A stretch of 51,554 bases of DNA from Patescibacteria group bacterium (lineage in GTDB: Bacteria > Patescibacteriota > Minisyncoccia > Phycocordibacterales > SIBU01): NCBI GenBank assembly GCA_040390045.1, contig JAZJZC010000003.1, positions 66,115 to 117,668 of the forward strand, given 5' to 3'. Position 1 is the stretch's first letter; each line of letters opens with the position of its first letter. Both the position numbers and the translations under genes were made by a program. Positions 872-51,554 of the stretch are shown here, piece by piece. Under the pieces are notes generated by a model that saw only the letters and a program-made list of their open reading frames with translations, searched no databases and was not told the origin of the DNA.

Positions 872-1140
872 CAACAAACAAGCGAAGCGCCGTTAGCTGT
901 GCGCTCGGAGCAAGCTCTAAACGAGCTTGCGTGGGGAATCGAACAGCGGAGTGTTGTTTTGCGAGCACGCAAAACCGCGAGCTGGTGCTCGACTTATTTT
1001 TATTTATAAAAATAGAAGTCCCCTTGTGGGACAGACAAACCTTTGCGACGGCGAAACTTGAGTCGCGGGCGATTCCAAAAATGGGAAAGGTATACTGTCC
1101 ATGTAATGGAAGATTCCCCCCCCCGAGAAGAGTACTTCTC
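872..1140 (+). repeat. tRNA 3'-flank structured element, Lys copy
   Basis: Linker caacaaacaagcgaagcg. tgtgcgctcgg (898-908) is the exact reverse complement of tRNA 863-873. Inserted hairpin at 909-932. ggggaatcgaac (933-944) is the exact reverse complement of tRNA 851-862. Several internal hairpins follow. gaaaggtatactg (1085-1097) precedes tcca-tgtaa-tgga (1098-1110). A degenerate sense copy agattcccccccccgag lies at 1111-1127. Confidence 0.65.
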
Positions 1141-7044: not shown

Positions 7045-7164
7045 CGGCTAAGTATAAGGTATATTGTATTAAGTATAAAGTATTGAGATTGCCTTTTTCT
7101 CCGATATTTGTTAGTGTGTTTGAGCTAACAGCTACAAGCTAACAGCTGAAAGCCTCTTTAAACA

Positions 7165-8514: not shown

Positions 8515-8769
8515 ACGGGCTCTCCGGCCAGACGCTTCGCTATCGAACTCTTTGCAAAGAATCTTCTTTGGCAGGAGTATCTCCCTCGGCAGGAAATCTT
8601 CCGTTACACGGACGGTCTCCTCGTTGAAACTTTATGGCAGGAGTATCTCCCTCGGCTAAAACTTTTCCGTCGAAAAGTTTTGCCTGGGCACCGGCTCGAA
8701 AAATTTTCTGCTGAAAATTTTATACTCCGCCGTTCGATTCCTGCCGGGAGCCACTCTCTGGCGTTCGTG
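8515..8769 (-). repeat. tRNA 3'-flank structured element, Arg(GCG) copy
   Basis: On the + strand, gttcgattcctgccgggagc (8732-8751) is the exact inverted copy of tRNA 8771-8790. The gcggagt box lies at 8724-8730 on the minus strand. The tccg-tgtaa-cgga hairpin (minus strand) lies at 8600-8612. A degenerate sense copy lies at 8578-8600. A 21-nt direct repeat ggcaggagtatctccctcggc occurs at 8570-8590 and 8636-8656. Confidence 0.65.
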
Positions 8770-8841
8770 TGCTCCCGGCAGGAATCGAACCTGCATTTCT
8801 CCCTTCGCAGGGGAGTGTCCTATCCATTGAACGACGGGAGC
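8770..8841 (-). tRNA. tRNA-Arg(GCG)
   Basis: Minus strand sequence is GCTCCCG..CGGGAGC-A. Anticodon stem CTCCC/GGGAG, loop CTGCGAA, T arm GCAGG-TTCGATT-CCTGC. No CCA. Confidence 0.9.
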
Positions 8842-8849
8842 GTCGGTGA

Positions 8850-8878
8850 AGTGTAAAACGAAAAGCAAAAAATGTAAA
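8850..8878 (-). promoter_or_regulatory. sigma70-like promoter of tRNA-Arg(GCG)
   Basis: On the minus strand: TTTACA, 17 nt, TACACT, then 8 nt to the tRNA 5' end. It is nearly identical to the promoter of tRNA-Arg(TCT). Confidence 0.6.
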
Positions 8879-8924
8879 ATTCCGCGTCTTCCGCGTTTGT
8901 TCTGCGAAGTTCCGCGTGGCTTCA

Positions 8925-10604: not shown

Positions 10605-10796
10605 TTTTGTTGCGGAGGAGGTGAGAGTTTCTCCTACAATTTTTTTCGCCGTCGCTCAAAAAATCCTAGGCGCCGGATTTCCGACACTCGCTGGTGCGAG
10701 CGTAGACCGGAAAACCCGTTCGAATCTCCCACGAAAAATCTTTGATTTTTCTTTCCTCTCGCAAATTAAAACCGCCCATAAAGGCGGTTTTATTTG
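10605..10796 (-). repeat. tRNA 3'-flank structured element, Ser copy
   Basis: In minus-strand order: terminator aaaaccgcc-tttatg-ggcggtttt (10769-10792); tgcgagagga (anti-acceptor-like); inserted hairpin gaaaaatc-aaa-gatttttc; gtgggagattcgaacggg (antisense T arm); degenerate tgtaggagaaac box. A 17-nt exact direct copy of the tRNA 3' end lies at 10610-10626. Confidence 0.6.
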
Positions 10797-10883
10797 CGGA
10801 GGAGGTGAGATTCGAACTCACGACACCCTTTCGGATGTGACAGTTTTCAAGACTGTTCCGTTAGACCGCTCCGGCACTCCTCC
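10797..10883 (-). tRNA. tRNA-Ser(TGA)
   Basis: Acceptor GGAGGAG/CTCCTCC, discriminator G, anticodon loop CTTGAAA, long variable arm CACATCCGAAAGGGTGTC, T loop TTCGAAT. 87 nt. Confidence 0.9.
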
Positions 10884-15172: not shown

Positions 15173-15188
15173 GTTTCTGGTTGTTGGT

Positions 15189-15217
15189 TTTACATTTTTC
15201 AATTTTAGCTTTACACT
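15189..15217 (+). promoter_or_regulatory. sigma70-like promoter of tRNA-Arg(TCT)
   Basis: TTTACA (15189-15194), 17 nt, TACACT (15212-15217), then 8 nt to the tRNA 5' end. Confidence 0.6.
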
Positions 15218-15225
15218 TCACCAAC

Positions 15226-15300
15226 GCCCTCGTAGCTCAATGGATAGAGCAGTGCTCTTCTAAGGCATTGATGCGGGTTCGATTCCCTCCGAGGGCACCA
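15226..15300 (+). tRNA. tRNA-Arg(TCT), CCA encoded
   Basis: Acceptor GCCCTCG/CGAGGGC, anticodon loop CTTCTAA, T loop TTCGATT, then A-CCA. Confidence 0.9.
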
Positions 15301-15414
15301 AATAAAAAATTCCCGGAAGGGAATTTTTTATTTGGTGCCCGAGAGGAGCCAACGATTTGGCTCCGTGAGGAAATTGGGGTACTGCTTTTGTAAGGGGAGA
15401 TTCGCTCGCGACTC
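15301..15414 (+). repeat. tRNA 3'-flank structured element, Arg(TCT) copy (compact)
   Basis: A 21-bp perfect hairpin (15294-15339) uses the tRNA GGCACCA end. Then come tggtgcccgaga (anti-acceptor), the inserted hairpin ggagccaa-cga-ttggctcc (15347-15365), and gtgaggaaattg. ggggtactg precedes cttt-tgtaa-gggg (15385-15397). The element ends with agattcgctcgcgactc. Confidence 0.6.
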
Positions 15415-15539: not shown

Positions 15540-15638
15540 CACTACTGTTCGCCTGCCTCGACTGTTTTGTCTGCTGACGAAACATGTCTCAGGCTCGCAC
15601 AAGTCCGAAAAAATCTCCAGTCATGGAGATTTTTTGGC

Positions 15639-15792
15639 TTGTGCGCGCTGAGAGATTTCGAAACTTACAGTTTCAGTACCCGCGATTGGATTTTTTCTAC
15701 GTTCAGAAACTAGAAAAAATGCTCAATCGGGCTTCGAATCTCTCACGGAAGCGTCCCACGCTTCCTAGCGCCACAACTCACTTCGTTCGTTG
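15639..15792 (-). repeat. tRNA 3'-flank structured element, Val copy
   Basis: In minus-strand order: linker caacgaacgaagtgag; tgtggcgct (anti-acceptor); inserted hairpin ggaagcg-tggga-cgcttcc; gtgagagattcgaagccc (antisense T arm); gggtactg followed by aaac-tgtaa-gttt (15661-15681). A 19-nt exact direct copy of the tRNA 3' end lies at 15639-15657. Confidence 0.7.
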
Positions 15793-15866
15793 TGCGCGCT
15801 GAGAGATTCGAACTCCCGACCCTCGCAGTGTAAATGCGATGCTCTAACCAACTGAGCTAAGCGCGC
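15793..15866 (-). tRNA. tRNA-Val(TAC)
   Basis: Acceptor GCGCGCT/AGCGCGC, anticodon stem TCGCA/TGCGA, loop TTTACAC, T arm GGGAG-TTCGAAT-CTCTC, discriminator A. No CCA. Confidence 0.9.
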
Positions 15867-16987: not shown

Positions 16988-17836
16988 ATGTTACATGTTT
17001 CCATTCTCTACGAAGACAAGGACGTATTGGTTATAAACAAGCCGGCTGGTCTTGTAGTACACGCAGACGGTAGAACTACGGAACCAACCCTGGTGGATTG
17101 GATTTTAGAGCACTATCCGAAAATTAAAGAAGTGGGAGAGCCGTTGAAAGTAGATTCAAGATTTAAGATTCAAGATTCAGGAGAAGGGAAGGCTCAAGGT
17201 GTTCCCGATTCTATTCCTGAATCCAAAATCTTGAATCCTGAATCTGTTATCTACCGTCCCGGCATTGTTCACCGCATTGACCGCGACACATCGGGCGCTT
17301 TAGTGATTGCAAAAAATCAGAAAACCTTTTTGTTTTTAAAACAGCAATTCCAAGATCGAGAAGTCGAAAAATCTTACCGAGCATTTGTGTACGGTGTGGT
17401 CAAGGCAGACGAAGGTGTTATTGACCGGCCAATTTCCCGAAGCCGTAAAGATTTTAGAATGTGGTCGGCGCAACGTGGAGGCAAGGGTGCAGAGCGTGAG
17501 GCTGTGACTGAATATAAAGTCTTGGCGAGAATTCCTGTTGCTGCGGGAAAGATTGGCGGGGACAGTGAAGGTTTTTCTTTTTTGGAATTAAAACCAAAAA
17601 CTGGCCGTACGCATCAAATTCGTGTTCACCTCAAAGCTATCAATCACCCGGTTGTTTGTGACACTCTGTATGCACCCAAGAGAGAAGCGGCTTTTGGTTT
17701 TACTCGATTGGCACTTCACGCGTTTTCTATAAAATTTATTTTACCAAAAGGTAAACAAGTCAGTGTTGAGGCACCCTATCCTAAAGATTTTATCAATGCT
17801 CTTGAGCAAATTGGTTTAGCTTTAAAATCTGCATAA
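16988..17836 (+). CDS. RluA-family pseudouridine synthase (RluD-like, no S4 domain)
   Basis: VINKPAGLVVH, RPGIVHRIDRDTSG (catalytic Asp) and TGRTHQIRVHL. Start set at the ATG at 16988, after a word-repeat palindrome. It contains an in-frame palindromic insert. Confidence 0.85.
   Translation: MLHVSILYEDKDVLVINKPAGLVVHADGRTTEPTLVDWILEHYPKIKEVGEPLKVDSRFKIQDSGEGKAQGVPDSIPESKILNPESVIYRPGIVHRIDRDTSGALVIAKNQKTFLFLKQQFQDREVEKSYRAFVYGVVKADEGVIDRPISRSRKDFRMWSAQRGGKGAEREAVTEYKVLARIPVAAGKIGGDSEGFSFLELKPKTGRTHQIRVHLKAINHPVVCDTLYAPKREAAFGFTRLALHAFSIKFILPKGKQVSVEAPYPKDFINALEQIGLALKSA
17152..17245 (+). repeat. in-frame imperfect palindrome of (AGATTYAR)n words inside the pseudouridine synthase CDS
   Basis: The 30-nt arms at 17152-17181 and 17216-17245 match in 25 of 30 positions when one is reverse-complemented, with a 34-nt loop. 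The insert encodes DSRFKIQDSGEGKAQGVPDSIPESKILNPES just upstream of the catalytic HRIDRDTSG motif. Confidence 0.7.
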
Positions 17837-18445: not shown

Positions 18446-18527
18446 GCCCAGGTGGAGAAATTGGTAGACTTACTACCTTGAGGTGGTAGCGCCGTAAGGC
18501 ATGCAGGTTCGAGTCCTGTCCTGGGCA
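18446..18527 (+). tRNA. tRNA-Leu(GAG)
   Basis: Acceptor GCCCAGG/CCTGGGC, anticodon stem CTACC/GGTAG, loop TTGAGGT, long variable arm, T arm GCAGG-TTCGAGT-CCTGT. No CCA. Confidence 0.9.
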
Positions 18528-18680
18528 CAAACGAGCGAAGCGAGTATGGCCGGGATGTAAGCTCTGGGAGAGCTTACATAAGGACTCGAAGACCTTTGAT
18601 AGTTTTCTGGAGTGTAATCACGAACAGAAAACAGAAAAGGTGTACTGAAACTGTAAGTTTCGAGATTCCTGTCCTAGGCA
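18528..18680 (+). repeat. tRNA 3'-flank structured element, Leu copy
   Basis: Linker caaacgagcgaagcgagta, then tggccggga. Inserted hairpin tgtaagctc-tggga-gagcttaca (18556-18578). taaggactcgaag is the antisense T arm. gaaaaggtgtactg precedes aaac-tgtaa-gttt (18648-18660). Sense copy cgagattcctgtcctaggca at 18661-18680. Confidence 0.7.
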
Positions 18681-18716
18681 ATAACTTTCGTTACTCTAAT
18701 AATTTATTCTACTTTA

Positions 18717-19292
18717 ATGCTCTACACTCGCGCTGGAGACAAAGGAACCACTAAAACTTTTGCCTGCGATCAAAGAATTAGTAAGAGTTCTGCCGTGGCA
18801 GAGGCGCTCGGCTCGCTCGACGAAGTCAATTCTTTTTTAGGTTTGTGCAAGGTGCGTTCGGAAGCTTTAAGCTACAAGCTTAAAGCTGTCAGCTTCCCGA
18901 AAATTGTTCACGGTATTCAGCAAAACCTTTTTATTGTTCAAGCCGAATTGGCAGGTTCGCCAAAAAAAATTGAAAAGAAAAAAGTAAAAGAAGTCGAAGC
19001 CTTTGTTGATGCAGCTGAGAAAGAATTACCCCCAATCAAAACTTTTTTTATTTCAGGGGGCACTGAGCTTGCATCGTTTTTTGATGTTTCTCGTACTCTC
19101 GCCCGACGAGCGGAAAGGCGAGTGGTGGCAGTTTCTGAATCTTTCAACATGCCTTTAGACAAGGAGGGAAAGCAAAAAATTGGACCTGAAACTTTGGCCT
19201 ATCTCAACCGGCTCTCGTCACTTTTGTATGCCTTGGCAAGATTAAGTAATCACTTCGGAGGAATTAAAGAGCAGCCACCTAATTACAAATAA
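18717..19292 (+). CDS. PduO-type ATP:cob(I)alamin adenosyltransferase family protein
   Basis: N-terminal YTRAGDKGTT, then a helical bundle with LARRAERRVV and LNRLSSLLYALAR. Confidence 0.8.
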   Translation: MLYTRAGDKGTTKTFACDQRISKSSAVAEALGSLDEVNSFLGLCKVRSEALSYKLKAVSFPKIVHGIQQNLFIVQAELAGSPKKIEKKKVKEVEAFVDAAEKELPPIKTFFISGGTELASFFDVSRTLARRAERRVVAVSESFNMPLDKEGKQKIGPETLAYLNRLSSLLYALARLSNHFGGIKEQPPNYK

Positions 19293-19333
19293 GCTTGAAG
19301 CTTTTAGCTTTTAGCTGTAAGCTTCCTCATGAT

Positions 19334-19405
19334 GGTGACTATGGTGTAGCGGTAGCACAGTTCCCTGTGGAGGAATAAGTTCGGGTTCAACTCCCGATAG
19401 TCACC
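19334..19405 (+). tRNA. tRNA-His(GTG) with encoded G-1
   Basis: G-1 plus GTGACTA/TAGTCAC, discriminator C, anticodon loop CTGTGGA, T arm TCGGG-TTCAACT-CCCGA. Confidence 0.9.
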
Positions 19406-19595
19406 CACGATAAAAGCGGCGCGAGCCGCTTTTTGAGTGTGTGACTAAGGAAGTCGGCGACCCGACTTCCGGTCGGGAGTTGAAAACCTTCTCCTAAATT
19501 TCTGAGACATTCTCATGACGAAGAAATAGGAAAGGTGTACTGCTCCTGTAAGGAGAAACTCCCGAAAAATTTCGAGGGAAGCTCCCGATAGTCAC
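19406..19595 (+). repeat. tRNA 3'-flank structured element, His copy
   Basis: Terminator aaaagcggc-gcga-gccgcttttt. tgtgacta is the anti-acceptor. Inserted hairpin ggaagtcgg-cgac-ccgacttcc. cgggagttgaaaacc is the antisense T arm. ggaaaggtgtactg (19529-19542) precedes ctcc-tgtaa-ggag (19543-19555). ctcccgatagtcac (19582-19595) is an exact 14-nt direct copy of tRNA 19391-19404. Confidence 0.7.
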
Positions 19596-21932
19596 TTAAA
19601 TTTTAGATCCAAAATATTTCGCAAGACCGTATTGAACAACTAAAAGCGGAGAAATAATGCCCAAAATGATACCTAGATTAGCGAGGGAAATGTTTGGTGT
19701 GGCAACAGTGAAGAATATCGTAAGCCATGGAATATTGAAGACTGCCAGTAACAACAAAAACTCGGCCATACCAAGGAAAAGGATTTCCACTTTTTGCGAT
19801 CTTGTCACCGTTTCTTGGAAAACTTTTGGCGCGAAGACGAAGAAACTGAAACCAAAAATAATAAAGGCGAAGGAGACGAGGGTGTTCGGCTCTGCTAATT
19901 TCAAAAAATTTTGATTTAAGAAAAATATCGCGGCCACCCCAATAGTTTGAATGACTGATGAGGCAAAAGCAAAAGGCAGAACTCGTTTCAAAAACAAACC
20001 GCCGCTTGCTCTGCGAACTTTTGCCGGAGAGCGAACAACCCAATACGAAATAAGTGCTCCAGGTAAACCGATGACGCAGTAGTTGATCAGTGTGACGTTG
20101 AAAGGCGTGAGTGGGTAGGATATGTTTGCGATGCTGGTGATTATGAAAAACAAAAGGCCAATGAAGGTTTGGCTGAGAAACATACTTGAAAACATTTCAA
20201 GGTAGCGAATGATGTTGTCTGCCAATTCAACTCCTCCGGGGAGCGCGGAAAAACTGTTGTTGGTGAGAACAACTGACGCGAGACTTCGTATGGCTGGCGC
20301 GCCATCAAACATAGCAATGCCGAGGTCGGCGCTTTTGATGGCAAGCGCGTCGTTAGCGCCGTCGCCAATCATGGCCGTGAAGCCGTCTTTCTTAAAAGCT
20401 TCAATAATTTGGCGTTTTTGTTCTGGCAAAATACCAGCGAAGATGGCGTAGGATTTTACCTTTGTTTCGAAGTCTCGCTCGTTCCACAATTTCAATTCTT
20501 TACCACTGATTACGGTGTCGCTATTTTTCACTCCCGCCGCCGCGGCAACCGCGGCGGCCGTTTCCGGATTATCTCCCGAAATAATTCTAATATTCACACC
20601 TCGATTTTGGAAAAAATCGATAGTTTCGCGAATGCCTGGGCGAAGATCGCTATGAAATACAAAAACAGCGACTACGGAAAGTTTTGTTTGGTCCAAACTC
20701 TCAAGAGGCGTTTCTTCGGAGGCTCGGAAAAAACATAGACTGCGTTCTCCTTTGGTGGCCAGGGCAGCTAAAAGTTTTTCCAGCCAGAGTTTTTCTTCTT
20801 CACGTTCCATGTGCGGCAAGAAAATCTGTGCAGGCCCCGCGAAAATAACTTCTCCTTTCCCTGAACTATTTTTCAGAAGTGTCGCACCATATTGTCGCCA
20901 TGAGGAAAAGGGAAGCGCTTTTAAGATTGTGCCACCGTAACTTTTAGTGAGAAACTTTTTAATGGCATCGACTGTTTGTGATGAGTCGCCCGAACCTTCA
21001 AGGTATCCTGCAGAAAGCTCCTGTGCTTCTTCTTTTGTCACGCCGTCGGGGACTGAAATATCTTTGACCGACAAAATATTTTCGGTGATGGTGCCGGTTT
21101 TATCCATGCAAAGATTTTTGATGCGCCCGAGTTTCTCTGTGGCGTTGACCTCTTGAAGCAAGACGTGCTTGCGGAACAGGTTGGCCGCTCCGTAGGCAAA
21201 AAACAACGTGACAGCAAACACCAAACCTTGTGGCACCAAAATACTGGTTAAGGTTCCGATTTCCAGAACGACGTTTACTGCCGATTCATGGAGGATGATT
21301 CCACGCGTAACGACAAAGGCTAAAGAGATAATCAGAATGTAACTGAAAACTTTTATAATTTTCTCAGATGATTTTTGAATTAAACTCGCGTTCGTGGAAT
21401 ATTTTTTAATACCCTCAGTCATTCGAGCAATTCGGCTTTCAGTAAACGGAGTTTCGATTTCGATAGTGCTCGAGCCTGATGTGATAACCGAGCCGGCAAG
21501 AAGCGAGTCGGAATCTTTTTTGTTAATGGAGTCCGATTCTCCGGTTATCAAACCCTCGTTTACTTCTAGGTTGAAAGCATTGAGGACCCTGCTATCACAA
21601 GGGACCTGATCGCCGATTTTTAGTTTAATGACATCTCCTTTTTTAATCTGCTCCACCAAAATCAATTCCTCCGTTTTATCTTTCTTCACTCGCAATACTC
21701 GTGGCGCGGTCAAGAGTTGCAATTTCTGAAGTGCTCTCCATGCGCTGATGTCTTGAATTAAACCGAGAGAGGAGTTTATAACAACGATGATGCCAAGAAA
21801 AATTCCCGCGCGGACGTTACCAAAAGCGATAAGTAAAATTACGACTGCAATAATAATGGCATGCGTCATGAGAAATACATTCCGGTAGATGATGTATCCC
21901 AAATCACGAAGGTTGAGCGAATCTAATTTCAT
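19596..21932 (-). CDS. cation-transporting P-type ATPase
   Basis: DKTGTITEN phosphorylation motif, TGES, GDGANDALAIKSADLGIAM, and about 8 TM segments. Start set at MKLDS to avoid overlapping the divergent helicase gene. Confidence 0.85.
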   Translation of the reverse strand: MKLDSLNLRDLGYIIYRNVFLMTHAIIIAVVILLIAFGNVRAGIFLGIIVVINSSLGLIQDISAWRALQKLQLLTAPRVLRVKKDKTEELILVEQIKKGDVIKLKIGDQVPCDSRVLNAFNLEVNEGLITGESDSINKKDSDSLLAGSVITSGSSTIEIETPFTESRIARMTEGIKKYSTNASLIQKSSEKIIKVFSYILIISLAFVVTRGIILHESAVNVVLEIGTLTSILVPQGLVFAVTLFFAYGAANLFRKHVLLQEVNATEKLGRIKNLCMDKTGTITENILSVKDISVPDGVTKEEAQELSAGYLEGSGDSSQTVDAIKKFLTKSYGGTILKALPFSSWRQYGATLLKNSSGKGEVIFAGPAQIFLPHMEREEEKLWLEKLLAALATKGERSLCFFRASEETPLESLDQTKLSVVAVFVFHSDLRPGIRETIDFFQNRGVNIRIISGDNPETAAAVAAAAGVKNSDTVISGKELKLWNERDFETKVKSYAIFAGILPEQKRQIIEAFKKDGFTAMIGDGANDALAIKSADLGIAMFDGAPAIRSLASVVLTNNSFSALPGGVELADNIIRYLEMFSSMFLSQTFIGLLFFIITSIANISYPLTPFNVTLINYCVIGLPGALISYWVVRSPAKVRRASGGLFLKRVLPFAFASSVIQTIGVAAIFFLNQNFLKLAEPNTLVSFAFIIFGFSFFVFAPKVFQETVTRSQKVEILFLGMAEFLLLLAVFNIPWLTIFFTVATPNISLANLGIILGIISPLLVVQYGLAKYFGSKI

Positions 21933-22010
21933 TCTGGAATTATAGCAGAGAGTGGCATTGGCAAAAGCTCCAAAGCCCAAGTGCACCATTAAATTTGCTA
22001 CAATACCCCC

Positions 22011-23693
22011 ATGACTCAAGAGGCGGCTTTCACAATTTTAAAAACCGGGGCCAACGTTTTTTTGACGGGGGAGCCCGGCTCCGGAAAAACGCATAGCGTT
22101 AATCGCTACGTGGAATATTTGCGTGAACATGACATTGAACCAGCCATTACCGCTTCAACTGGCATTGCTGCGACGCATATTGGAGGTGTGACTATTCACT
22201 CATGGTCCGGCATCGGCATTGCCAAAGTTTTGTCGGAACAAGATCTCGATAAAATGGGAACCAACGAACGATTGACCAGGCGTGTTTCTCGCGCCAAAGT
22301 TTTGATCATTGATGAGATTTCAATGCTCGATGCTTTAACACTGACCGCGGTTGATCAGGCGTGTCGCGCACTCAGAAGAAATCAAGAAGTTTTTGGCGGA
22401 CTTCAGGTGGTGTTTGTGGGAGATTTTTTTCAGTTACCGCCAATCTCGAGAATGGGTGAGCCACCATCGAAGTTTGCCTTTATGTCGCCATCGTGGAAGG
22501 ATGCGTCGCCACTTATTTGTTATCTCACCGAGCAACACCGTCAGGATGACGAACAATTTATTTCCTTTTTATCGAGTCTTCGCAGTGGGGATGTGGATGA
22601 GGGTGCTCATTTAGCGCTCACCGAGAGAAGAATTGAACCAAAAGCCGGAGCGGCGCATACCCATACGCGATTGTATTCGCATAATATTGATGTCGACAAA
22701 GTGAATAATCAAAAATTAGCCGCCATTGCGAGCGACGTTCGTGAGTTTATTATGGATTCAGTTGGGCCGGAGAGATTATTACTCGGACTTAAAAAAGGCT
22801 GTTTGTCGCCGGAACGATTGTTGCTTAAAGTTGGCGCGCGAGTGATGTTTACCAAAAATAATTTTGAAGAAGGTTTTGCCAATGGAACACTCGGAGAAAT
22901 TTCCGGCTTTAGTGACACTGGCGCTCCAATAGTCGCGACGCTCGGCAGCGCTAAAATTGCAGTTGAGCCGATGGAGTGGACGATTACTGATGGTTCAAAA
23001 ACTTTGGCTAAAATTACCCAAGTGCCGCTTCGACTTGCCTGGGCCATAACGGTGCACAAAAGCCAAGGTATGACACTCGATGCGGCGGTGATTGATCTTT
23101 CTCAGGCGTTTGAATACGGCCAAGGCTACGTAGCGCTTTCACGAGTCCGTTCATTTTCGGGTTTGTTTTTACTCGGGTACAACCAGCGCGCGCTTGAAGT
23201 CCACCCAGACATTTTAGTTGTTGACAGTAAGTTTAAGGAGCAGTCGGAAGAGGCGGGCGATGCTTTTGAAAAATTGTCCCCAGCAGAACTTCAAAAAATG
23301 GAGAAAAATTTTATTCGAGCTTGTGGAGGAACTCCTGAGAAGATACAACCTAAGAAACTTAAAAGTTTAAAAAAGAAAATTCCTGGCGTGACAACATACG
23401 ACGAAACCTTTGACTTGTGGAAGGCGGGGAAGTCAATCGCCGAGATTGCAACGTTGCGTGAGATCGGCACGCGAACGGTCACTGCTCATTTTGAGGAACT
23501 TTTCATGCGAGGAAAAGTCACTACAGACGATTTGCGGAAAATTATTTCAATCGAGGCCGAAAAAAATTTAACCGAAATTAGAGCAGTGTTTAAAGAACTG
23601 GGCTCTGAAAAATTGGCACCGGTGTTTGAGGCACTCGGCAAAAAATATTCATACGATGATCTCAATCTCATTCGCGCCGCATTTTTGAAATAG
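22011..23693 (+). CDS. PIF1/RecD-like SF1 DNA helicase with C-terminal HTH domain
   Basis: Walker A GEPGSGKTH, VLIIDEISML, VGDFFQLPPI and AITVHKSQGMTLD. The C-terminal segment KSIAEIATLREIGTRTVTAHFEEL is HTH-like. Confidence 0.8.
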   Translation: MTQEAAFTILKTGANVFLTGEPGSGKTHSVNRYVEYLREHDIEPAITASTGIAATHIGGVTIHSWSGIGIAKVLSEQDLDKMGTNERLTRRVSRAKVLIIDEISMLDALTLTAVDQACRALRRNQEVFGGLQVVFVGDFFQLPPISRMGEPPSKFAFMSPSWKDASPLICYLTEQHRQDDEQFISFLSSLRSGDVDEGAHLALTERRIEPKAGAAHTHTRLYSHNIDVDKVNNQKLAAIASDVREFIMDSVGPERLLLGLKKGCLSPERLLLKVGARVMFTKNNFEEGFANGTLGEISGFSDTGAPIVATLGSAKIAVEPMEWTITDGSKTLAKITQVPLRLAWAITVHKSQGMTLDAAVIDLSQAFEYGQGYVALSRVRSFSGLFLLGYNQRALEVHPDILVVDSKFKEQSEEAGDAFEKLSPAELQKMEKNFIRACGGTPEKIQPKKLKSLKKKIPGVTTYDETFDLWKAGKSIAEIATLREIGTRTVTAHFEELFMRGKVTTDDLRKIISIEAEKNLTEIRAVFKELGSEKLAPVFEALGKKYSYDDLNLIRAAFLK

Positions 23694-27630: not shown

Positions 27631-27662
27631 ACCTGTTACTTTAGTCAACTAAAGTAACAGGT
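27631..27662. promoter_or_regulatory. 14-bp-arm perfect palindrome containing the ACTTTAG-TCAA-CTAAAGT operator core
   Basis: acctgttactttag-tcaa-ctaaagtaacaggt. It may double as the galU terminator stem, although no T-run follows. Confidence 0.6.
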
Positions 27663-27663
27663 A

Positions 27664-27691
27664 TTGACAAAAAATTCTGTTTTGCTACACT
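27664..27691 (+). promoter_or_regulatory. sigma70-like promoter of the TrpR-like gene
   Basis: TTGACA (27664-27669), 16 nt, TACACT (27686-27691). The -10 overlaps operator copy 2. Confidence 0.6.
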
Positions 27692-27706
27692 TTAGTCAAC
27701 TAAAGT
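27689..27706. promoter_or_regulatory. operator palindrome copy 2
   Basis: actttag-tcaa-ctaaagt, a perfect 7-bp-arm palindrome. Confidence 0.6.
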
Positions 27707-27768
27707 AATTAGTTTGTGAGAATTTGAAGAAGAGAAGAACAAGCTGAATTTAGTTACACAGACACCAC

Positions 27769-28083
27769 ATGAAAAAAACCAGAGGCAAAGTTAAAAAAAC
27801 ATGGGACAATGCTCGCACCGAGGCTCTGGTAAAGGCATTTTCAGTTTTGCGAAACGGTTCCGAAATCAAAGCCTTTTTGCGAGATTTACTTACGGAAGCG
27901 GAACTGGTTGAGTTTGGCCATCGTTTTTATGTGGCTCAAATGCTCGATAAAAAGGTGCATTACAACGCTATTAGCGAAACAACCGGTTTGAGTTCAACGA
28001 CTATCGCTCGGGTAAAGAAGTGGGTGAAAGGCGGAATGGGAGGGTATCGTATCGCACTCTCACGGTTCCCAAAAAAGAAATAG
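27769..28083 (+). CDS. TrpR-like (YerC/YecD family) DNA-binding protein
   Basis: LRDLLTEAELVEFGHRFYVAQML...ISETTGLSSTTIARVKKW is the typical Trp-repressor-fold HTH. Confidence 0.75.
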   Translation: MKKTRGKVKKTWDNARTEALVKAFSVLRNGSEIKAFLRDLLTEAELVEFGHRFYVAQMLDKKVHYNAISETTGLSSTTIARVKKWVKGGMGGYRIALSRFPKKK

Positions 28084-28123: not shown

Positions 28124-28141
28124 ACTTTAGTTAACTAAAGT
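28124..28141. promoter_or_regulatory. operator palindrome copy 3, upstream of the LOG-like gene
   Basis: actttag-ttaa-ctaaagt, perfect. It lies 23 nt upstream of the ATG at 28164. Confidence 0.6.
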
Positions 28142-28163
28142 GCAGAGAAAATATATTACGTGT

Positions 28164-47517: not shown

Positions 47518-50500
47518 ATGGACGAAAATCTCAAGAAAAATCCACTAGTGGAAAACGAAGAAAAAACTCTGAAATTTTGGCGTGAAAATAGTATTTTCGA
47601 GAAATCTTTGGCCAAAGAGTCGCCAAAAGGTGAGTTTGTTTTCTATGAAGGCCCCCCAACAGCCAACGGTCGCCCCGGTATTCATCATCTCGAGGCGAGA
47701 GCTTTTAAAGATGCCATTCCTCGATACAAAACCATGCAAGGGTTCCATGTTCGTCGCAAAGGCGGTTGGGATACGCACGGGCTTCCCGTTGAGTTGGCGG
47801 TTGAAAAAGAACTTGGCCTTAAATCAAAAAAAGAAATTGAAGTATACGGCATCGAGGCTTTTAATAAAAAATGCAAAGAAAGTGTTTGGAAATTTGTCAG
47901 TGAGTGGGAAGAATTTACCCAGCGCATCGGCTACTGGGTTGATCTGAAAAATCCTTATGTTACTTACAAACCAGAGTACATTGAATCGGTCTGGAATATT
48001 GTTAGTAAAATAAACGAACAGGGACTTTTGTATAAAGATTACAAGGTGGTGCCGTGGTGTCCGAGGTGTGGCACCGGGCTTTCGAGCCACGAACTGGCAC
48101 AGGGGTATGAGGATGTGAAGGATTTGTCGGTTACAACTAAGTTCAAAGTTAAAAGTGAAAAGTTTAAAAGTAAAGACGGGGAGGAAACCTATTTGTTGGC
48201 ATGGACGACTACGCCGTGGACACTTCCTGGAAATGTCGGACTAGCTGTTGGAGAAAAAATTACCTACCAGCTCGTTGTATCGGAAGGGTTACAGTATATC
48301 GTTGCCAAGGAGCGAGCAGCAACAGTTTTCAAAGAAAAAACTTTTGAAGTAGTTCAAGATATTTCAGGCAAAGAACTTATTGGTTTGGAATACGAACCAC
48401 TGTACCCATTTCTCAAAGATAATCTTTCCGAGACTGAAAAACCAAAATTGGCCAATGCGTTTAAGGTTTATCCTGCGAATTTTGTAACCACAACCGATGG
48501 AACTGGAATTGTGCACACTGCAGTGATGTATGGAACGGATGACTTTGAGCTTGGCAATAAAGTTGGCTTACCGAAACATCACCTGGTCAAAGAAGACGGA
48601 ACCTTTAAAGAAGAAGTTGGTTTTTTGGCGGGGAAATTTGTGAAGCCCGCCCGAACGACTGAAGCCAGTGTTCAGTCGGGCGGGGATGAAGGCGTCGACA
48701 TTTTGATTATAAAAGATTTAGCCGGACGTGGGTTGTTATTCTCAAAGGAAAAATATTCTCACAGTTATCCGCACTGTTGGCGCTGTCACACCCCACTTAT
48801 CTATTTCGCCCGAGATTCTTGGTACATCAAGATGTCTGCGCTTCGCGAAAAATTACTTTCAGAAAATGAAAAAATAAATTGGGAACCCGATTATATTAAG
48901 CATGGCCGGTTTGGTGAATGGTTGAAGGACGTAAAGGATTGGGCAATTTCCCGAGAGCGATATTGGGGAACGCCGTTACCTGTTTGGAAAACTTCAGCTA
49001 CTTCGGGAAACGCCGAAAAATATGTCGTAATCGGATCAATTGCTGATCTCAAAAAGTATGCCAAAAAATCTGGCAATACCTATTTCGTAATGCGTCACGG
49101 CGAGTCGGTTCACAATCTTGAGTGGAGGATCAGTACTACGCACGACAATCGTGAGGATTGTCTGACTGAAAAAGGTAAAGCTCAGGCTTTAGCTTCAGCG
49201 CAAACCCTCAAGGATAAAAAAATCGATATGATCGTAGTTTCGCCGTTCAAAAGAACCAGAGAAACTAGTGAAATTGTGCGAGAGGCTTTGGGTTTGTCAC
49301 CAGAAAAAGTAACCCTCGATGAACGATTGCATGAGATCGGGGTGTATTCCTTTGAAGGAAAAACATGGGAAGAGTACCATGAGGTTTTTCCTAAAACTGA
49401 AGAATATTTTACCGCCAAGCGTGACGGTGACGAATCATATCTTGATGCGAAGATAAGAATGATGAAAGTTCTGTACGAGTACGAATCTAAATACCAAGGA
49501 AAAAATATTCTGTTTGTCACTCATGGAGGCCCAGGCTGGCTTCTTAATGCCGGTTCCCATGGACTATCACTATCTGAAACCTACAGTGCGATTAGTTCAA
49601 TTGATAACGCTCGACAGGATGGAATTAAAAACGCTGAAATTCGAGAGCTTGATTTTGTTCCTCTGCCACATAATGAAAATTATGAACTCGATCTCCATCG
49701 ACCGTTCATCGACGCAATCGAACTTATCGATGAAAATGGCGCGCCTATGACTCGCGCTAAAGAAGTGATGGATGTTTGGTTTGATTCAGGGGCAATGCCG
49801 TTTGCTCAGGACGCGGATCTACGCCGAACAGACGCAGAATCCGCCGCGGCGGACGGAAAAAAATCGTGGGACGATATTTCTTACCCTGCGGATTTTATTT
49901 CTGAGGCCATCGACCAGACTCGCGGTTGGTTTTATACGTTGCACGCAATTGGCGTACTGACCGGGAAGGGAAGAGCCTACAAAAATGTTATTTGCCTTGG
50001 ACATATTTTGGATGCCGAAGGCAAGAAGATGTCGAAATCTGTCGGGAACGTGGTTGACCCGCACAAAATGATTGAAAAGTATGGCGCAGACCCATTACGA
50101 TTTTGGATGTACAGTGTTAATCAACCCGGAGAGCCAAAAAATTTTGACGAAAAAACGGTAGATGAGATCGTGAAAAAGGTTTTTAATCTCACATCGAACG
50201 TTCTCACTTTCTACCAGTTGTATGCAGAAACAGAACACGGATCACAGAACACAGAACACGAAAAGCAAATCAGTAACAACGTTTTAGACCAATGGATACT
50301 CACTCGACTCAATCAACTCGTTGCCGAAGTTACAACCTCTCTCAATTCTTATAAATTACTCGAACCAACTCGGGCGATCCGTGATTTTATCGCCGACCTA
50401 TCGCAGTGGTATTTGCGGCGATCGCGCGACAGATTTAAGGGGGAAGATGAAGCGGATAAAAATTCTGCTCTACAAACTACAAATTACGTACTGCTGACTC

Positions 50501-51123
50501 TTGCGAAAGTCATGGCTCCATTTACTCCATTTTTTGCTGATTTCTTGTACAAAGGAGTTGAGGGAAAAGAGCAAAGTGTTCATTTGGAGAAATGGCCCGA
50601 AGAAAGTTTAAAGTTTAAAGTTGAAGGTTTAAAAGTTCTGGAGCAAATGGAAGAAGTGAGAAAAATTGTTTCGCTTGGATTAGAACAACGAGCAAAGGCT
50701 GGGATAAAAGTTCGACAACCGCTCCAAAAATTAAAAATTAAAAGTGAAAAGTTAAAAATTTCTGACAAGGATTTTCTCGGGCTCGTGAAAGATGAAGTGA
50801 ACGTCAAAGAAGTCGTCATTGATCTCAGTCTGTCGACCGAAGTAGAACTCGATCTCAACATCACTCCCGAACTTAAAGAAGAGGGAAGTGTTCGAGAATT
50901 TGTTCGCGCGATACAGGATTTGAGAAAGACCAGTGGATTTAATCCAGGTGAATTAGCTGAGCTTACTGTTGATGCGGACGAAAAAACTTTACAATTTTTA
51001 CAGAAATACGAGAAAGATCTCATCAAATCGACTCAATTAAAGAAAATTCAATATGCCTCTGTGTCAGGCGGGACAGAAGTTTCTCTCGAGGAAGCAAAGG
51101 TAAAAATTTCTATTTCTAAATAA
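47518..51123 (+). CDS. ileS: isoleucine--tRNA ligase (type 2) with inserted histidine-phosphatase domain
   Basis: PPTANGRPGIHH (HIGH), WTTTPWTLPGN, WAISRERYWGTPLPVW, DVWFDSGAMPF and KMSKSVGN. At 1201 aa it is long for IleS. Confidence 0.9.
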   Translation: MDENLKKNPLVENEEKTLKFWRENSIFEKSLAKESPKGEFVFYEGPPTANGRPGIHHLEARAFKDAIPRYKTMQGFHVRRKGGWDTHGLPVELAVEKELGLKSKKEIEVYGIEAFNKKCKESVWKFVSEWEEFTQRIGYWVDLKNPYVTYKPEYIESVWNIVSKINEQGLLYKDYKVVPWCPRCGTGLSSHELAQGYEDVKDLSVTTKFKVKSEKFKSKDGEETYLLAWTTTPWTLPGNVGLAVGEKITYQLVVSEGLQYIVAKERAATVFKEKTFEVVQDISGKELIGLEYEPLYPFLKDNLSETEKPKLANAFKVYPANFVTTTDGTGIVHTAVMYGTDDFELGNKVGLPKHHLVKEDGTFKEEVGFLAGKFVKPARTTEASVQSGGDEGVDILIIKDLAGRGLLFSKEKYSHSYPHCWRCHTPLIYFARDSWYIKMSALREKLLSENEKINWEPDYIKHGRFGEWLKDVKDWAISRERYWGTPLPVWKTSATSGNAEKYVVIGSIADLKKYAKKSGNTYFVMRHGESVHNLEWRISTTHDNREDCLTEKGKAQALASAQTLKDKKIDMIVVSPFKRTRETSEIVREALGLSPEKVTLDERLHEIGVYSFEGKTWEEYHEVFPKTEEYFTAKRDGDESYLDAKIRMMKVLYEYESKYQGKNILFVTHGGPGWLLNAGSHGLSLSETYSAISSIDNARQDGIKNAEIRELDFVPLPHNENYELDLHRPFIDAIELIDENGAPMTRAKEVMDVWFDSGAMPFAQDADLRRTDAESAAADGKKSWDDISYPADFISEAIDQTRGWFYTLHAIGVLTGKGRAYKNVICLGHILDAEGKKMSKSVGNVVDPHKMIEKYGADPLRFWMYSVNQPGEPKNFDEKTVDEIVKKVFNLTSNVLTFYQLYAETEHGSQNTEHEKQISNNVLDQWILTRLNQLVAEVTTSLNSYKLLEPTRAIRDFIADLSQWYLRRSRDRFKGEDEADKNSALQTTNYVLLTLAKVMAPFTPFFADFLYKGVEGKEQSVHLEKWPEESLKFKVEGLKVLEQMEEVRKIVSLGLEQRAKAGIKVRQPLQKLKIKSEKLKISDKDFLGLVKDEVNVKEVVIDLSLSTEVELDLNITPELKEEGSVREFVRAIQDLRKTSGFNPGELAELTVDADEKTLQFLQKYEKDLIKSTQLKKIQYASVSGGTEVSLEEAKVKISISK
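49081..49620 (+). other. histidine phosphatase (PGAM/CobC-like) domain embedded in IleS
   Basis: YFVMRHGESVHN (RHGxxxxN), SPFKRTRETS, LHEIGVYSFEGKTW and FVTHGG. It lies between the conserved WGTPLPVW and DLHRPFID segments. Confidence 0.7.
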
Positions 51124-51336: not shown

Positions 51337-51554
51337 ATGTCGCAACGACACCCACAAAAAACAAACAAACAAAACAAAAAAATCCCTCCAACTTCCACAC
51401 CCACTTTCCACAAATCCCAAACAACCAAACCAACCCTTCCCCAATCACCAATTCCAAAACCCACCAAACCCACCTCCAACCCCACCCGCAAAACTCCACA
51501 CTCCACACTCCACACTCCACACTCCACACTCCACACTCCACACTCCACACTCCA
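51337..51554 (+). CDS. 5' part of a Pro/Thr/Lys-rich low-complexity ORF running off the window
   Basis: ATG at 51337, with aaggaaa 7 nt upstream. It is open to the window end: MSQRHPQKTNKQNKKIPPTSTPTFHKSQTTKPTLPQSPIPKPTKPTSNPTRKTPHSTLHTPHSTLH... Confidence 0.35.
   Translation, partial: MSQRHPQKTNKQNKKIPPTSTPTFHKSQTTKPTLPQSPIPKPTKPTSNPTRKTPHSTLHTPHSTLHTPHSTL
51493..51554 (+). repeat. (ACTCCAC)n heptanucleotide tandem repeat, 8.9 copies up to the window edge
   Basis: Perfect 7-nt periodicity from 51493 to the last base. Confidence 0.9.

Follow-up and report, generated by a model that had tools for sequence, protein, structure and literature searches.

Some casposons target the 3′ ends of tRNA genes or of protein genes and leave a long target duplication of 14–15 bp, which for CRISPR spacers has the length of the repeat. 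Among the sublocation classes of integrases, crossover in the T loop is matched by a repeat that extends from the T loop through the tRNA 3′ end. The guide/target pairing of IS608 and the tRNA-matching homing guide of type V-K CRISPR-associated transposons (CASTs) offer conceptual parallels for elements that carry a complement of their own target. Here we describe a set of short elements behind the tRNA genes of a 51.5-kb chromosomal stretch, called the window throughout and meaning the whole stretch analyzed, from a Patescibacteria genome of the Paceibacteria/Parcubacteria type (contig JAZJZC010000003.1). The elements of the window are about 110–260 bp long, non-coding and hairpin-rich. Downstream of all seven tRNA genes, and only downstream, an antisense copy (A′) and a sense copy (S) of that tRNA's own T-loop-to-3′-end segment were found.

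Results

Copies of the tRNA 3′ end in the window

ARAGORN and Rfam placed the seven tRNA genes of the window (Lys, Arg(GCG), Ser(TGA), Arg(TCT), Val(TAC), Leu(GAG) and His) within 1 nt of the coordinates given in an earlier note on this DNA, which had described repeated structured flanks behind them. The last 25 nt of each tRNA was used as a probe against its own downstream 350 nt, with the upstream flank, the flanks of the other tRNAs and the 5′ part of the tRNA as probe serving as controls. Long exact matches were confined to the probe tRNA's own downstream 350 nt and all controls gave a background of 5–8 nt only, so the inverted and direct tRNA-matching segments described earlier are non-random. 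The longest exact sense/antisense matches, in nucleotides, were 16/13 for Val, 14/12 for His, 14/11 for Ser, 10/12 for Lys, 9/20 for Arg(GCG), 9/10 for Leu and 6/7 for the degenerate Arg(TCT) copy. Behind tRNA-Lys, positions 898–908 are the reverse complement of 863–873 and positions 933–944 read ggggaatcgaac, an exact antisense segment as had been stated. The division into linker-type and terminator-type copies was likewise found as described, and a hairpin is inserted in six of the seven copies, the Arg(GCG) element having instead an uninterrupted 22-nt antisense copy. The box GTACTG-N4-TGTAA occurs five times in the window against 0.3 expected by chance, each time beside a tRNA; it is absent from the Ser element, and the Arg(GCG) element has the TGTAA hairpin only.

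The concern that these flanks might be assembly artefacts was addressed with a separate Logan assembly of SRR26324623, which is identical to the window across 18499–23292. This contig starts inside tRNA-Leu (window 18499) and spans the Leu element, the tRNA-His gene and the His element, and the sequence is therefore independent of any one assembler. The Logan contig bearing the window's first genes, which is the upstream contig (L186), stops inside tRNA-Lys at about window position 833, and the one bearing the cob gene (L187) starts inside tRNA-Leu. With contig ends inside both genes, the tRNA/element repeats can be seen to fragment short-read assemblies.

A common bracket around different cores

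For comparison, 160 loci around the orthologous cob gene (L001–L160) were collected from species-representative genomes and metagenomes, one syntenic region per genome, which together with the window comprise 1.66 Mb and 354 tRNAs. In tRNA-sense order, an element consists of a linker or a terminator hairpin, A′, a structured core and S. It lies at the 3′ end of the tRNA gene, in the tRNA's own orientation, and the tRNA gene is intact. In 44 distinct well-preserved copies, A′ is the Watson-Crick complement of gene positions 54–73. It pairs with the 3′ strand and is not a sense copy of the 5′ strand, as can be seen at tRNA-Leu, where the T stem is GGAGG/CCTCT and A′ reads AGAGG. A′ reaches position 76, including the trailer, S is a sense copy of positions 54/56 to about 76, and the resulting direct repeat with the gene's own segment (X) is about 21–23 nt long. 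A′ is uninterrupted in 12 copies and split by a hairpin in 21, the insert size being bimodal (0 or 24–25 nt). The hairpin always lies exactly between the reverse complements (rc) of positions 66–73 and 54–65, which is the acceptor/T-stem junction (65|66), and we refer to the two parts of A′ on either side of it as A′acc and A′T. The inserted hairpin has a 9-bp covarying stem. Its sequence had been said to differ in every copy; not all of the hairpins are unrelated, and sub-families with the loops CTGGGAG or AACTGC recur.

The motif GCGAAGC or GCAAAGC is present in the linker (window 18533–18543) and in several hairpin loops, and recurs in the linkers or P2 loops of many copies (for example at 8471 in L018 and 6987 in L076). 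As DNA, d(GCGAAGC) forms a mini-hairpin of unusual stability. GAGCRAAGCGA was matched seven times in the window and the first 80 loci, each time behind a tRNA.

A core is always present between A′ and S. A′ and S are never closer than 56 nt, and the data contain no A′|S palindrome devoid of a core. In type-A cores, a stem P1 encloses hairpin P2 and is followed by a conserved GGTACTG-like joiner and then by the 4-bp stem P3, whose loop is TGTAA and which abuts S. Type-B cores read AGNCGGAG, hairpin, GAGN′CGGGGTCGNG, hairpin and CNTGACC, and abut S at position 56. Type-C cores read GGCGGAGT, hairpin, GAGCCGGTGCCCAG, a hairpin with a CGACGG loop and AGYCGAGGG, and several motifs are common to types B and C. 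In the window, the Val, Leu and His elements and the decayed Arg(TCT) element are of type A, Arg(GCG) is of type C, Ser has a B/C-like core, and Lys combines type C with the 3′ half of type A. The segment that the earlier note had called variable is therefore ordered and forms a structured core that is conserved and exists in at least three types. Because the cores fall into these types, the view that one homologous element follows all seven tRNAs holds only in part.

Covariation and strand of the cores

When 35 type-A cores were aligned, P1 and P3 proved to be 94.9% paired, compared with at most 53% in register-slid controls, and showed 103 double-sided changes versus 25.5 in shuffles. Among the five core P1 pairs and P3, there were eight sense-strand wobbles (GU/UG) versus two non-pairing cells, one of them C-A. 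The middle pair of stem Pa in type B occurs in all four Watson-Crick combinations, and the type-B pairing GTCGNG/CNTGAC holds a conserved G·T, for which the opposite strand would give an A-C mismatch. These data show that the cores are under selection as structures and that the strand read is the tRNA-sense one. The wobbles and the conserved G·T indicate that it is the fold of one strand that matters, which fits RNA and single-stranded DNA (ssDNA) alike.

When the element is folded alone, A′acc pairs with the acceptor part of S, the hairpin branches off and A′T pairs with the T part of S, and in this model the A′T/S helix is predicted to close a three-way junction with the core. The predicted folds are far more stable than those of shuffled sequences (z −3.3 to −5.0). 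Folding is about equally good for the two strands, so that thermodynamics alone cannot pick between them. Divergence of the two arms from the tRNA comprised 45 differences found only in S, 44 found only in A′ and 3 shared, and the A′-to-S pairing shows no sign of selection beyond each arm's likeness to the tRNA.

Distribution in related genomes

Recurrence outside the window is massive among related Paceibacteria loci. Among the 321 tRNAs with both flanks, exact matches of at least 12 nt to the last 25 nt of the tRNA numbered 39 antisense and 49 sense downstream, and there were none in either sense upstream. When A′T was scored with a 12-nt antisense T-loop/T-stem probe (at least 10/12 matching), 80 of 332 tRNAs were positive downstream, versus 10 of 321 in the upstream control. 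The positive tRNAs were those for Arg (three anticodons), Ser (two), Leu (two), His, Val, Lys, Ile(TAT) and Asp. The distribution is patchy between genomes, with 28 of the 54 loci that have at least three scorable tRNAs lacking any copy and with 6/7 in both the window and locus L002; the window's seventh copy, the degenerate Arg(TCT) one, is missed by this scoring and seen by the other analyses. It is also patchy within genomes, where some tRNAs are filled and others empty. The question whether every tRNA gene has an element can thus be answered positively for the window (7/7) and nearly so for L002, and negatively across the clade.

As had been proposed, a covariance model was built and the relatives were searched. 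With the type-A model at E ≤ 0.003, the 1.66 Mb gave 47 hits, 34 of which lie within 300 nt 3′ of a same-strand tRNA, where about 4% would be expected by position. The other hits lie at contig edges or inside arrays, apart from one copy at rplK. No type-A core was found elsewhere in the window, and the Arg(TCT) copy has a type-A covariance score of 19.4 bits.

The rplK copy is in locus L023 (OZ244961.1, a 617-kb Paceibacterota chromosome), with its type-A core between the rplK stop codon and the rplK terminator. Both of its arms, A′ (CGTCGATC) and S (TTGACGTGAAGTAA), are copies of the last part of rplK with its stop codon, and the site (GGGATCGACG) resembles a T arm. The layout is thus not strictly tRNA-specific, and with rplK-derived arms at rplK, the arms are best described as copies of whatever lies upstream.

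Turnover of the copies and origin of the arms

Comparison of orthologous loci for empty sites, another check that had been suggested, revealed both filled and empty tRNAs. Loci L082 and L083 have identical tRNA-Leu genes with similar upstream flanks. L083 is empty, its cob gene following 166 nt after tRNA-Leu. L082 is filled, with 1.65 kb between tRNA-Leu and cob that hold two different type-A elements, a third partial core and cargo, namely a SocA/Panacea antitoxin gene and an adjacent open reading frame (ORF) of 112 aa without a Pfam match. Tandem copies, perfect or diverged, are present in L106, L005, L011, L049 and L082, and L121 and L105 have a type-A copy nested within type B. Accessory genes (DUF6438, cupin, DUF218) separate the tRNA from a distal A′-core-S in L049, L130 and L025; in the cargo-bearing arrays of L049 and L130 the tRNA is tRNA-His. 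The empty and filled sites, tandem and nested copies and cargo arrays show that copies turn over, and in this the elements behave as mobile DNA typically does.

The arrays of L049 (10900–11010) and L130 (about 2830–2930) also contain a conserved non-coding segment of about 100 nt, placed between the cargo gene and the terminator that precedes A′-core-S, whose end ACGGCACCC resembles the 3′ end of tRNA-His. It had no Rfam match in L130, and it could represent a fourth type of core or a different RNA.

In L002, the core is identical at 61 of 61 nt at tRNA-Leu and tRNA-His, and A′, the hairpin and S differ, the arms each matching their own tRNA. Across genomes, cores beside different tRNAs are 81–90% identical, the Cob proteins of these genomes being 61–78% identical to that of the window. 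Cores are thus shown to be shared between different tRNAs and to be conserved as tRNA-sense-strand structure, and the proposal of an element system with common non-tRNA parts and with arms templated on, or co-evolving with, the neighboring tRNA is borne out, down to arms that reach into their own tRNA's trailer. In 10 of 21 genes without CCA, A′ matches the gene's own trailer over 3 nt (for example CAT, CAG or CAC), and CCA was matched in 0 of 21. As A′ follows the trailer and never CCA, its template is the gene or the primary transcript, not the mature tRNA. The arms are shown to derive from the local gene. Where a copy is of the terminator type, a single perfect palindrome runs without a break through X, the terminator and A′. 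The S copies at Arg(GCG) and Arg(TCT) in L002 carry the same 14-nt insertion, differing at 1 of 14 positions; S therefore travels with the element and is not a displaced tRNA end.

In the window as in L001–L160, most tRNA genes do not encode CCA; in nearly all of the genes, however, the discriminator is immediately followed by C-A (CAA, CAT, CAG, CAC).

Organization of the window

The coordinates of the elements and of their parts are collected in Table 1.

Table 1. Elements at the seven tRNA genes of the window and their parts.
Feature	Coordinates	Strand	Description
tRNA-Leu(GAG)	18446..18527	+	Positions 54–76 (X, ~18505–18530) are the segment copied downstream
Leu linker	18529..18546	+	aaacgagcgaagcgagta; family-wide motif, contains GCGAAGC
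Leu A′acc	18547..18555	+	Antisense of acceptor 3′ strand and discriminator; partly decayed
Leu hairpin	18556..18578	+	CTGGGAG-loop sub-family; exactly between rc(66–73) and rc(54–65)
Leu A′T	18579..18590	+	Antisense of T loop and T-stem 3′ strand; aggactcgaa exact
Leu type-A core	18591..18641	+	Stem P1 (ACCTTT/AAAGGT) around hairpin P2
Leu GTACTG joiner and P3	18642..18660	+	4-bp P3 stem with TGTAA loop; conserved
Leu S	18661..18680	+	Sense copy, T loop to 3′ end (cgagattcctgtcctaggca)
Lys element (tRNA-Lys 799–871)	873..1127	+	Composite: type-C core, then 3′ half of type-A core
Lys linker	873–897	+	
Lys A′acc	898–908	+	
Lys hairpin	909–932	+	
Lys A′T	933–944	+	
Lys type-C core	945–1069	+	AT-rich hairpin inside
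Lys partial S	1070–1076	+	
Lys type-A 3′ half	1077–1110	+	GGTATACTG box and P3
Lys S	1112–1127	+	
Arg(GCG) element (tRNA 8770–8841)	8570..8768	-	Type C
Arg(GCG) linker	8754–8768	-	
Arg(GCG) A′	8732–8753	-	Uninterrupted
Arg(GCG) type-C core	8648–8731	-	
Arg(GCG) partial S	8636–8647	-	
Arg(GCG) TGTAA hairpin	8600–8614	-	
Arg(GCG) S	8581–8598	-	
Arg(GCG) further partial S	8570–8580	-	
Ser(TGA) element (tRNA 10797–10883)	10609..10795	-	B/C-like core
Ser terminator	10763–10795	-	
Ser A′acc	10754–10762	-	
Ser hairpin	10731–10753	-	
Ser A′T	10718–10730	-	
Ser B/C-like core	10631–10717	-	With GCGACGGC loop
Ser S	10609–10630	-	
Arg(TCT) element (tRNA 15226–15297)	15300..15412	+	Type A, most decayed copy; P1/P2 missing
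Arg(TCT) palindrome	15293–15340	+	Terminator, tRNA 3′ end and A′acc; perfect 22+22 nt
Arg(TCT) hairpin	15345–15366	+	
Arg(TCT) A′T		+	Degenerate
Arg(TCT) box and P3	15377–15397	+	
Arg(TCT) S	15398–15412	+	Degenerate
Val(TAC) element (tRNA 15793–15866)	15608..15791	-	Type A
Val linker	15775–15791	-	
Val A′acc	15766–15774	-	
Val hairpin	15745–15765	-	
Val A′T	15733–15744	-	
Val type-A core	15661–15732	-	
Val S	15639–15660	-	
Val terminator	15608–15635	-	
His element (tRNA 19335–19405)	19407..19595	+	Type A
His terminator	19412–19434	+	
His A′acc	19439–19448	+	
His hairpin	19449–19470	+	
His A′T	19471–19484	+	
His type-A core	19485–19555	+	
His partial S	19556–19565	+	
His extra antisense copy	19570–19578	+	Small
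His S	19582–19595	+	

The window has a GC content of about 43–45% and carries the housekeeping genes fpg, ruvA, ruvX, pilM, uppS, rplS, nusG, rplK, thyA, folA, glyA, argS and ileS and a Mur ligase gene. The nearest relatives of its Cob(I)alamin adenosyltransferase-like protein are all from metagenome-assembled Patescibacteria genomes. The cumulative GC skew climbs monotonically, which on this measure alone suggests that the window lies on a single replichore. A Pfam scan of essentially all window ORFs of at least 90 aa found no recombinase, transposase, reverse transcriptase, HUH, Cas1 or TnpB protein, and the DNA-transaction genes of the window are limited to one for a PIF1-like helicase and the housekeeping ruvA and ruvX. 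The helicase gene (22011–23693) encodes a C-terminal HTH_40 domain and no Rep domain, and it is the sole DNA-transaction gene of the window that is not obviously housekeeping. A further 10 kb upstream, reached through an exact-protein look-up, contained no tRNA and no element.

Several other features of the window were noted. Together with their promoters (TTTACA-N17-TACACT), the two Arg tRNA genes make up an inverted repeat (8769–8879 and 15188–15298) whose 111-nt halves are 77% identical and lie 6.3 kb apart. The ileS gene (47518–51123) encodes a protein of 1201 aa with a His_Phos_1 (histidine-phosphatase) domain, residues 523–689, inserted in the middle of the catalytic domain. The palindrome ACTTTAGTCAACTAAAGT occurs three times (27638–27657, 27689–27708 and 28124–28143) around a Trp-repressor-family gene (27769–28083); we take these copies to be like E. 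coli trp operator half-sites and probably the operators of that gene. Short periodic repeats of the types AGCTNNNAGCT, AAGATTC and AAGTTYAAAGT are found between genes and within the coding genes for the cob adenosyltransferase, a pseudouridine synthase and IleRS (7123–7156, 18863–18896, 19292–19325, 17150–17254 and 48139/50604/50728), and have the look of short inserts of low-complexity or hairpin sequence. A tandem 14-nt repeat, ACTCCACACTCCAC, lies at 51479–51548, the extreme end of the window and probably the contig end.

Discussion

The explanation that we favor, with the case for and against it about evenly balanced, is a family of small non-autonomous insertion elements with target-derived arms, moved by a trans-acting enzyme in some Paceibacteria. 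Insertion at the 3′ end of a gene would duplicate the terminal ~22 nt of the target, and S would be the second copy of this long target duplication, as in tRNA-targeting integrative elements or casposons. The folded single strand would be the substrate for a trans-acting enzyme (a recombinase, an HUH nuclease or a reverse transcriptase) encoded elsewhere in the genome, and in the recognized fold A′ would pair with the tRNA-derived arm and close the three-way junction with the core. The renewal of A′ for a new target could proceed by templated synthesis at insertion, by guide-like targeting through the conserved T-loop part with subsequent palindrome correction against the tRNA, or by recombinational spread of cores between existing brackets. 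Of the readings offered in the earlier note, miniature integrative elements and an ssDNA recombination substrate fit best, in view of the presence/absence pattern, the tandem and nested copies, the cargo arrays and the copy at a protein gene. Its suggestion of decayed cis-mobilizable elements (CIMEs) is too narrow, because an integrase att remnant leaves the inverted copy and the retargetable arms unexplained. A more far-reaching version, which we regard as doubtful, is a new class of programmable mobile element or guide system, in which A′ would be a split guide of about 20 nt around a scaffold hairpin that pairs with the single-stranded 3′ end of a gene, and a trans-acting enzyme would insert the core and re-synthesize both arms. 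Such pairing would usually go through the near-universal T-loop sequence of tRNAs, and the element would carry a self-updating, double-orientation copy of its own address.

Several points weigh against insertion elements of this kind. No integrase, transposase, HUH, reverse transcriptase, Cas1 or TnpB gene was found in the window and the 10-kb upstream flank, and no free, circular or autonomous form was seen in the analyzed assemblies. The insertion boundaries are not fixed at base level, as the downstream flanks of empty and filled sites with identical tRNAs (the pairs L082/L083 and L127/L136 among them) could not be aligned. We know of no transposition chemistry that yields a direct and an inverted target copy interleaved with element sequence. 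The conserved G·U-type sense-strand wobbles suit RNA equally, as does an orientation that strictly follows the upstream gene, and with data from one syntenic region per genome, the genome-wide behavior is extrapolated. Apart from these objections, GGTGTACTG-N4-TGTAAG gave 24 matches in viral contigs, all of them chance matches inside coding sequence without the element layout, so there is no sign of phages carrying type-A cores with this exact box. Full-text literature searches, within the terms used, returned no description of such elements or of a guide-type mechanism.

A functional trailer RNA is in our view unlikely. It would arise by co-transcription with the tRNA or by read-through, and its A′ could pair either with the 3′ half of the tRNA or with S. 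It could act in maturation, quality control, sensing or as a decoy on the cognate tRNA, or be processed itself as an RNA resembling the top half of a tRNA. Such an RNA would account for the constant position of the element directly 3′ of the gene on the tRNA-sense strand, for its presence at 7/7 window tRNAs, for covariation that includes eight G·U pairs against two non-pairing cells and the type-B G·T, for folds that beat shuffles, and for a hairpin located at the very point from which, in a tRNA, the D and anticodon arms depart from the acceptor/T stack. The same signs of orientation, wobble and hairpin position would be expected if a mobile element passed through an RNA intermediate. The control of tRNA maturation that the earlier note had considered is weakened by the intrinsic terminator that, when strictly scored, separates the tRNA from A′ in at least 30 of 80 copies, by the many orthologous tRNAs (the majority) and whole genomes without an element, and by the independent drift of A′ and S without compensatory changes. 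There is also no room for a separate promoter, nor is there a consistent promoter-like site in the cores; the A′ pairing covers the discriminator and the trailer and leaves no free NCCA-like acceptor end; and copies may be tandem, nested, decayed (as at Arg(TCT)) or cargo-bearing. At least three unrelated core types in the same bracket, a copy at the protein-coding rplK and an antisense strand that folds about equally well do not suit a trailer RNA either. Somewhat less probable still is hairpin-driven template switching, with one turn at the terminator or linker hairpin and another at the T arm that would give the order sense-antisense-sense (X, A′, S), comparable to duplication-triplication/inverted-duplication (DUP-TRP/INV-DUP) events or quasipalindrome extension, the cores being small hairpin modules that happened to lie at the second turn. 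The X-A′-S order is indeed the signature of two switches, and A′ was copied from DNA-level sequence that includes the trailer. The X-terminator-A′ palindrome is perfect over 22+22 nt at Arg(TCT), where it was kept though the rest decayed, and recurs in L002, L043, L045 and L076, and there are secondary small sense-antisense-sense triplets and duplicated partial S copies in His, Arg(GCG), Lys and the L002 Leu element. Template switching leaves unexplained the conserved covarying cores common to different tRNAs and genomes, the fixed 24–25-nt hairpin at 65|66, the family-specific linker, the absence of core-less A′|S palindromes, the cargo-gene arrays and the division of genomes into copy-rich and copy-free, although it may have contributed as a process as well as standing as a rival.

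We consider it very improbable that the elements are remnants of classical site-specific integration, that is, attL/attR scars or CIME-like leftovers of a T-loop crossover in which S is the displaced original end and the present tRNA 3′ end was supplied by the element. The direct repeat does span the T loop to the 3′ end, the newest copy adjoins the tRNA, arrays hold cargo and terminator-type copies bring their own terminator. Against this, the window and the examined arrays hold no integrase, the inserts are only 0.1–0.3 kb, and the inverted copy, the hairpin and the structured core would have no role. The same core beside many tRNAs with matching arms would require a new attP for each tRNA, and the 14-nt insertion common to the S copies of Arg(GCG) and Arg(TCT) in L002 means that S is not the displaced original. 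Three narrower candidates were also considered. Origin of A′ from a mature-tRNA complementary DNA (cDNA) or primer-binding site was rejected because A′ follows the gene trailer and not CCA, and an exact tRNA mimic for RNase P or RNase Z is weakened because A′ pairs through the discriminator and beyond. An invertible promoter ('inverton') between A′ and S was set aside: 34 of 34 tRNA-proximal type-A hits are co-oriented with the tRNA (only same-strand tRNAs being scored), and no consistent promoter was found in the cores.

If the elements are mobile insertion elements, they would have a route to colonize essential single-copy tRNA genes without harm and would carry target-matched sequence in both orientations around a conserved fold, which would point to an undescribed structure- or guide-directed insertion enzyme in Patescibacteria; time and again, enzymes of this sort have been turned into tools for genome engineering. 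As RNAs, the elements would be the first case of tRNA-specific antisense or mimic trailers occurring systematically behind bacterial tRNA genes. Either way, the elements cause contig breaks, create tRNA-fragment calls in metagenome-assembled genomes and mark accessory-gene hot spots, such as the antitoxin-gene cassette of L082.

Comparison with known systems

No catalogued repeat, RNA family or mobile-element class among those tested fits the elements. An Rfam scan detected only tRNA, the flanks giving no match at the gathering score or at E ≤ 5 in the window and at E ≤ 1 in six loci with type-A and type-B copies, and no Rfam family, small self-cleaving ribozymes included, was matched. Repetitive extragenic palindromic sequences (REPs) and bacterial interspersed mosaic elements (BIMEs) are imperfect palindromes of 20–40 nt with a fixed family sequence, dispersed between genes and linked to a RAYT transposase. 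Unlike these, type-A cores are not scattered: they are confined to tRNA 3′ flanks (34 of 47), with the rest at contig edges, in arrays and at rplK. In miniature inverted-repeat transposable elements (MITEs), edge inverted repeats are family-conserved and the target duplication is 2–10 bp, whereas here the edge repeats (A′ and S) differ per copy and match the neighboring tRNA, and the direct repeat is about 21–23 nt. A′ differs from the primer-binding site of a retroelement in complementing the trailer (10 of 21) and never CCA.

Among guide-based systems, IS608 and type V-K CAST guides are similar in that a sequence borne by the element beside a hairpin complements the flanking target. The elements differ from CAST, IS110 and IS200-type systems in that no transposase, TnpB or Cas gene is present in the window and the 10-kb upstream flank. 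The guides of the tandem interspaced guide RNA (TIGR) and bridge-RNA systems match opposite strands through adjacent short spacers and lie beside a gene for a Nop-domain or IS110 protein (PMC12045711). In the elements described here, the guide-like segment is about 20 nt and matches the same strand with both halves; dual guides of the TIGR or bridge-RNA type were therefore rejected, as neither the opposite-strand adjacent spacers nor a Nop-domain or IS110 gene is the case here. Palindrome-associated transposable elements (PATEs) of the IS200/IS605 group share a hairpin-rich, strand-specific structure. PATEs insert 3′ of a fixed tetra- or pentanucleotide, in an orientation that depends on the lagging-strand template. 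They differ in target repeats, which IS200/IS605 do not make and which are long and direct here, and in that the present elements occur on both strands of one replichore (assigned from GC skew alone), following the orientation of the tRNA and not the direction of replication; no tnpA or tnpB was found in the window and its 10-kb upstream flank.

The attC sites of integrons and the attP hairpin of CTX phage, which is used by Xer recombinases, are folded single-strand recombination sites and resemble the elements in that an imperfect inverted repeat (here A′/S or X/A′) can fold to mimic a duplex target, with an extrahelical feature near the center and a variable terminal structure. The cassette-like arrays with small cargo genes, including an antitoxin gene, are a further likeness to attC. 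However, the arms here are 20-nt target copies and not 7-nt R/L boxes. A′ ends in TCGAA(C) or TTGAA(C) and S starts with (G)TTCGA or (G)TTCAA, so that of RYYYAAC/GTTRRRY only AAC/GTT fits in this motif comparison. What corresponds to the variable terminal structure is here a conserved core, many tRNAs act as the attI-like site, and no intI or tyrosine recombinase gene lies beside any of the seven tRNAs or the examined cargo arrays.

Casposon and CRISPR integration is similar in producing a long duplication, here of about 21–23 nt, at the 3′ ends of tRNAs and, in one case, of rplK. The elements differ from casposons in that they are tiny, non-coding and equipped with an antisense target copy; no Cas1 or PolB gene and no terminal inverted repeats common to the copies were found. 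They differ from tRNA-targeting integrative elements and CIMEs in their size of 0.1–0.3 kb without an integrase, in an internal full-length inverted att-like copy that is often split by a hairpin, and in conserved structured cores. A displaced original end and one attP per target are likewise not what is seen, given the S insertion in L002 and the one core that serves both Leu and His there. The likeness is clear in the insertion at the 3′ end of an intact tRNA, in the T-loop-to-3′-end direct repeat that flanks the insert, and in arrays that build up at one tRNA, sometimes with cargo. By this comparison, the working mode of the elements appears to be most like that of tRNA-targeting integrative elements and of casposon/CRISPR-type integration.

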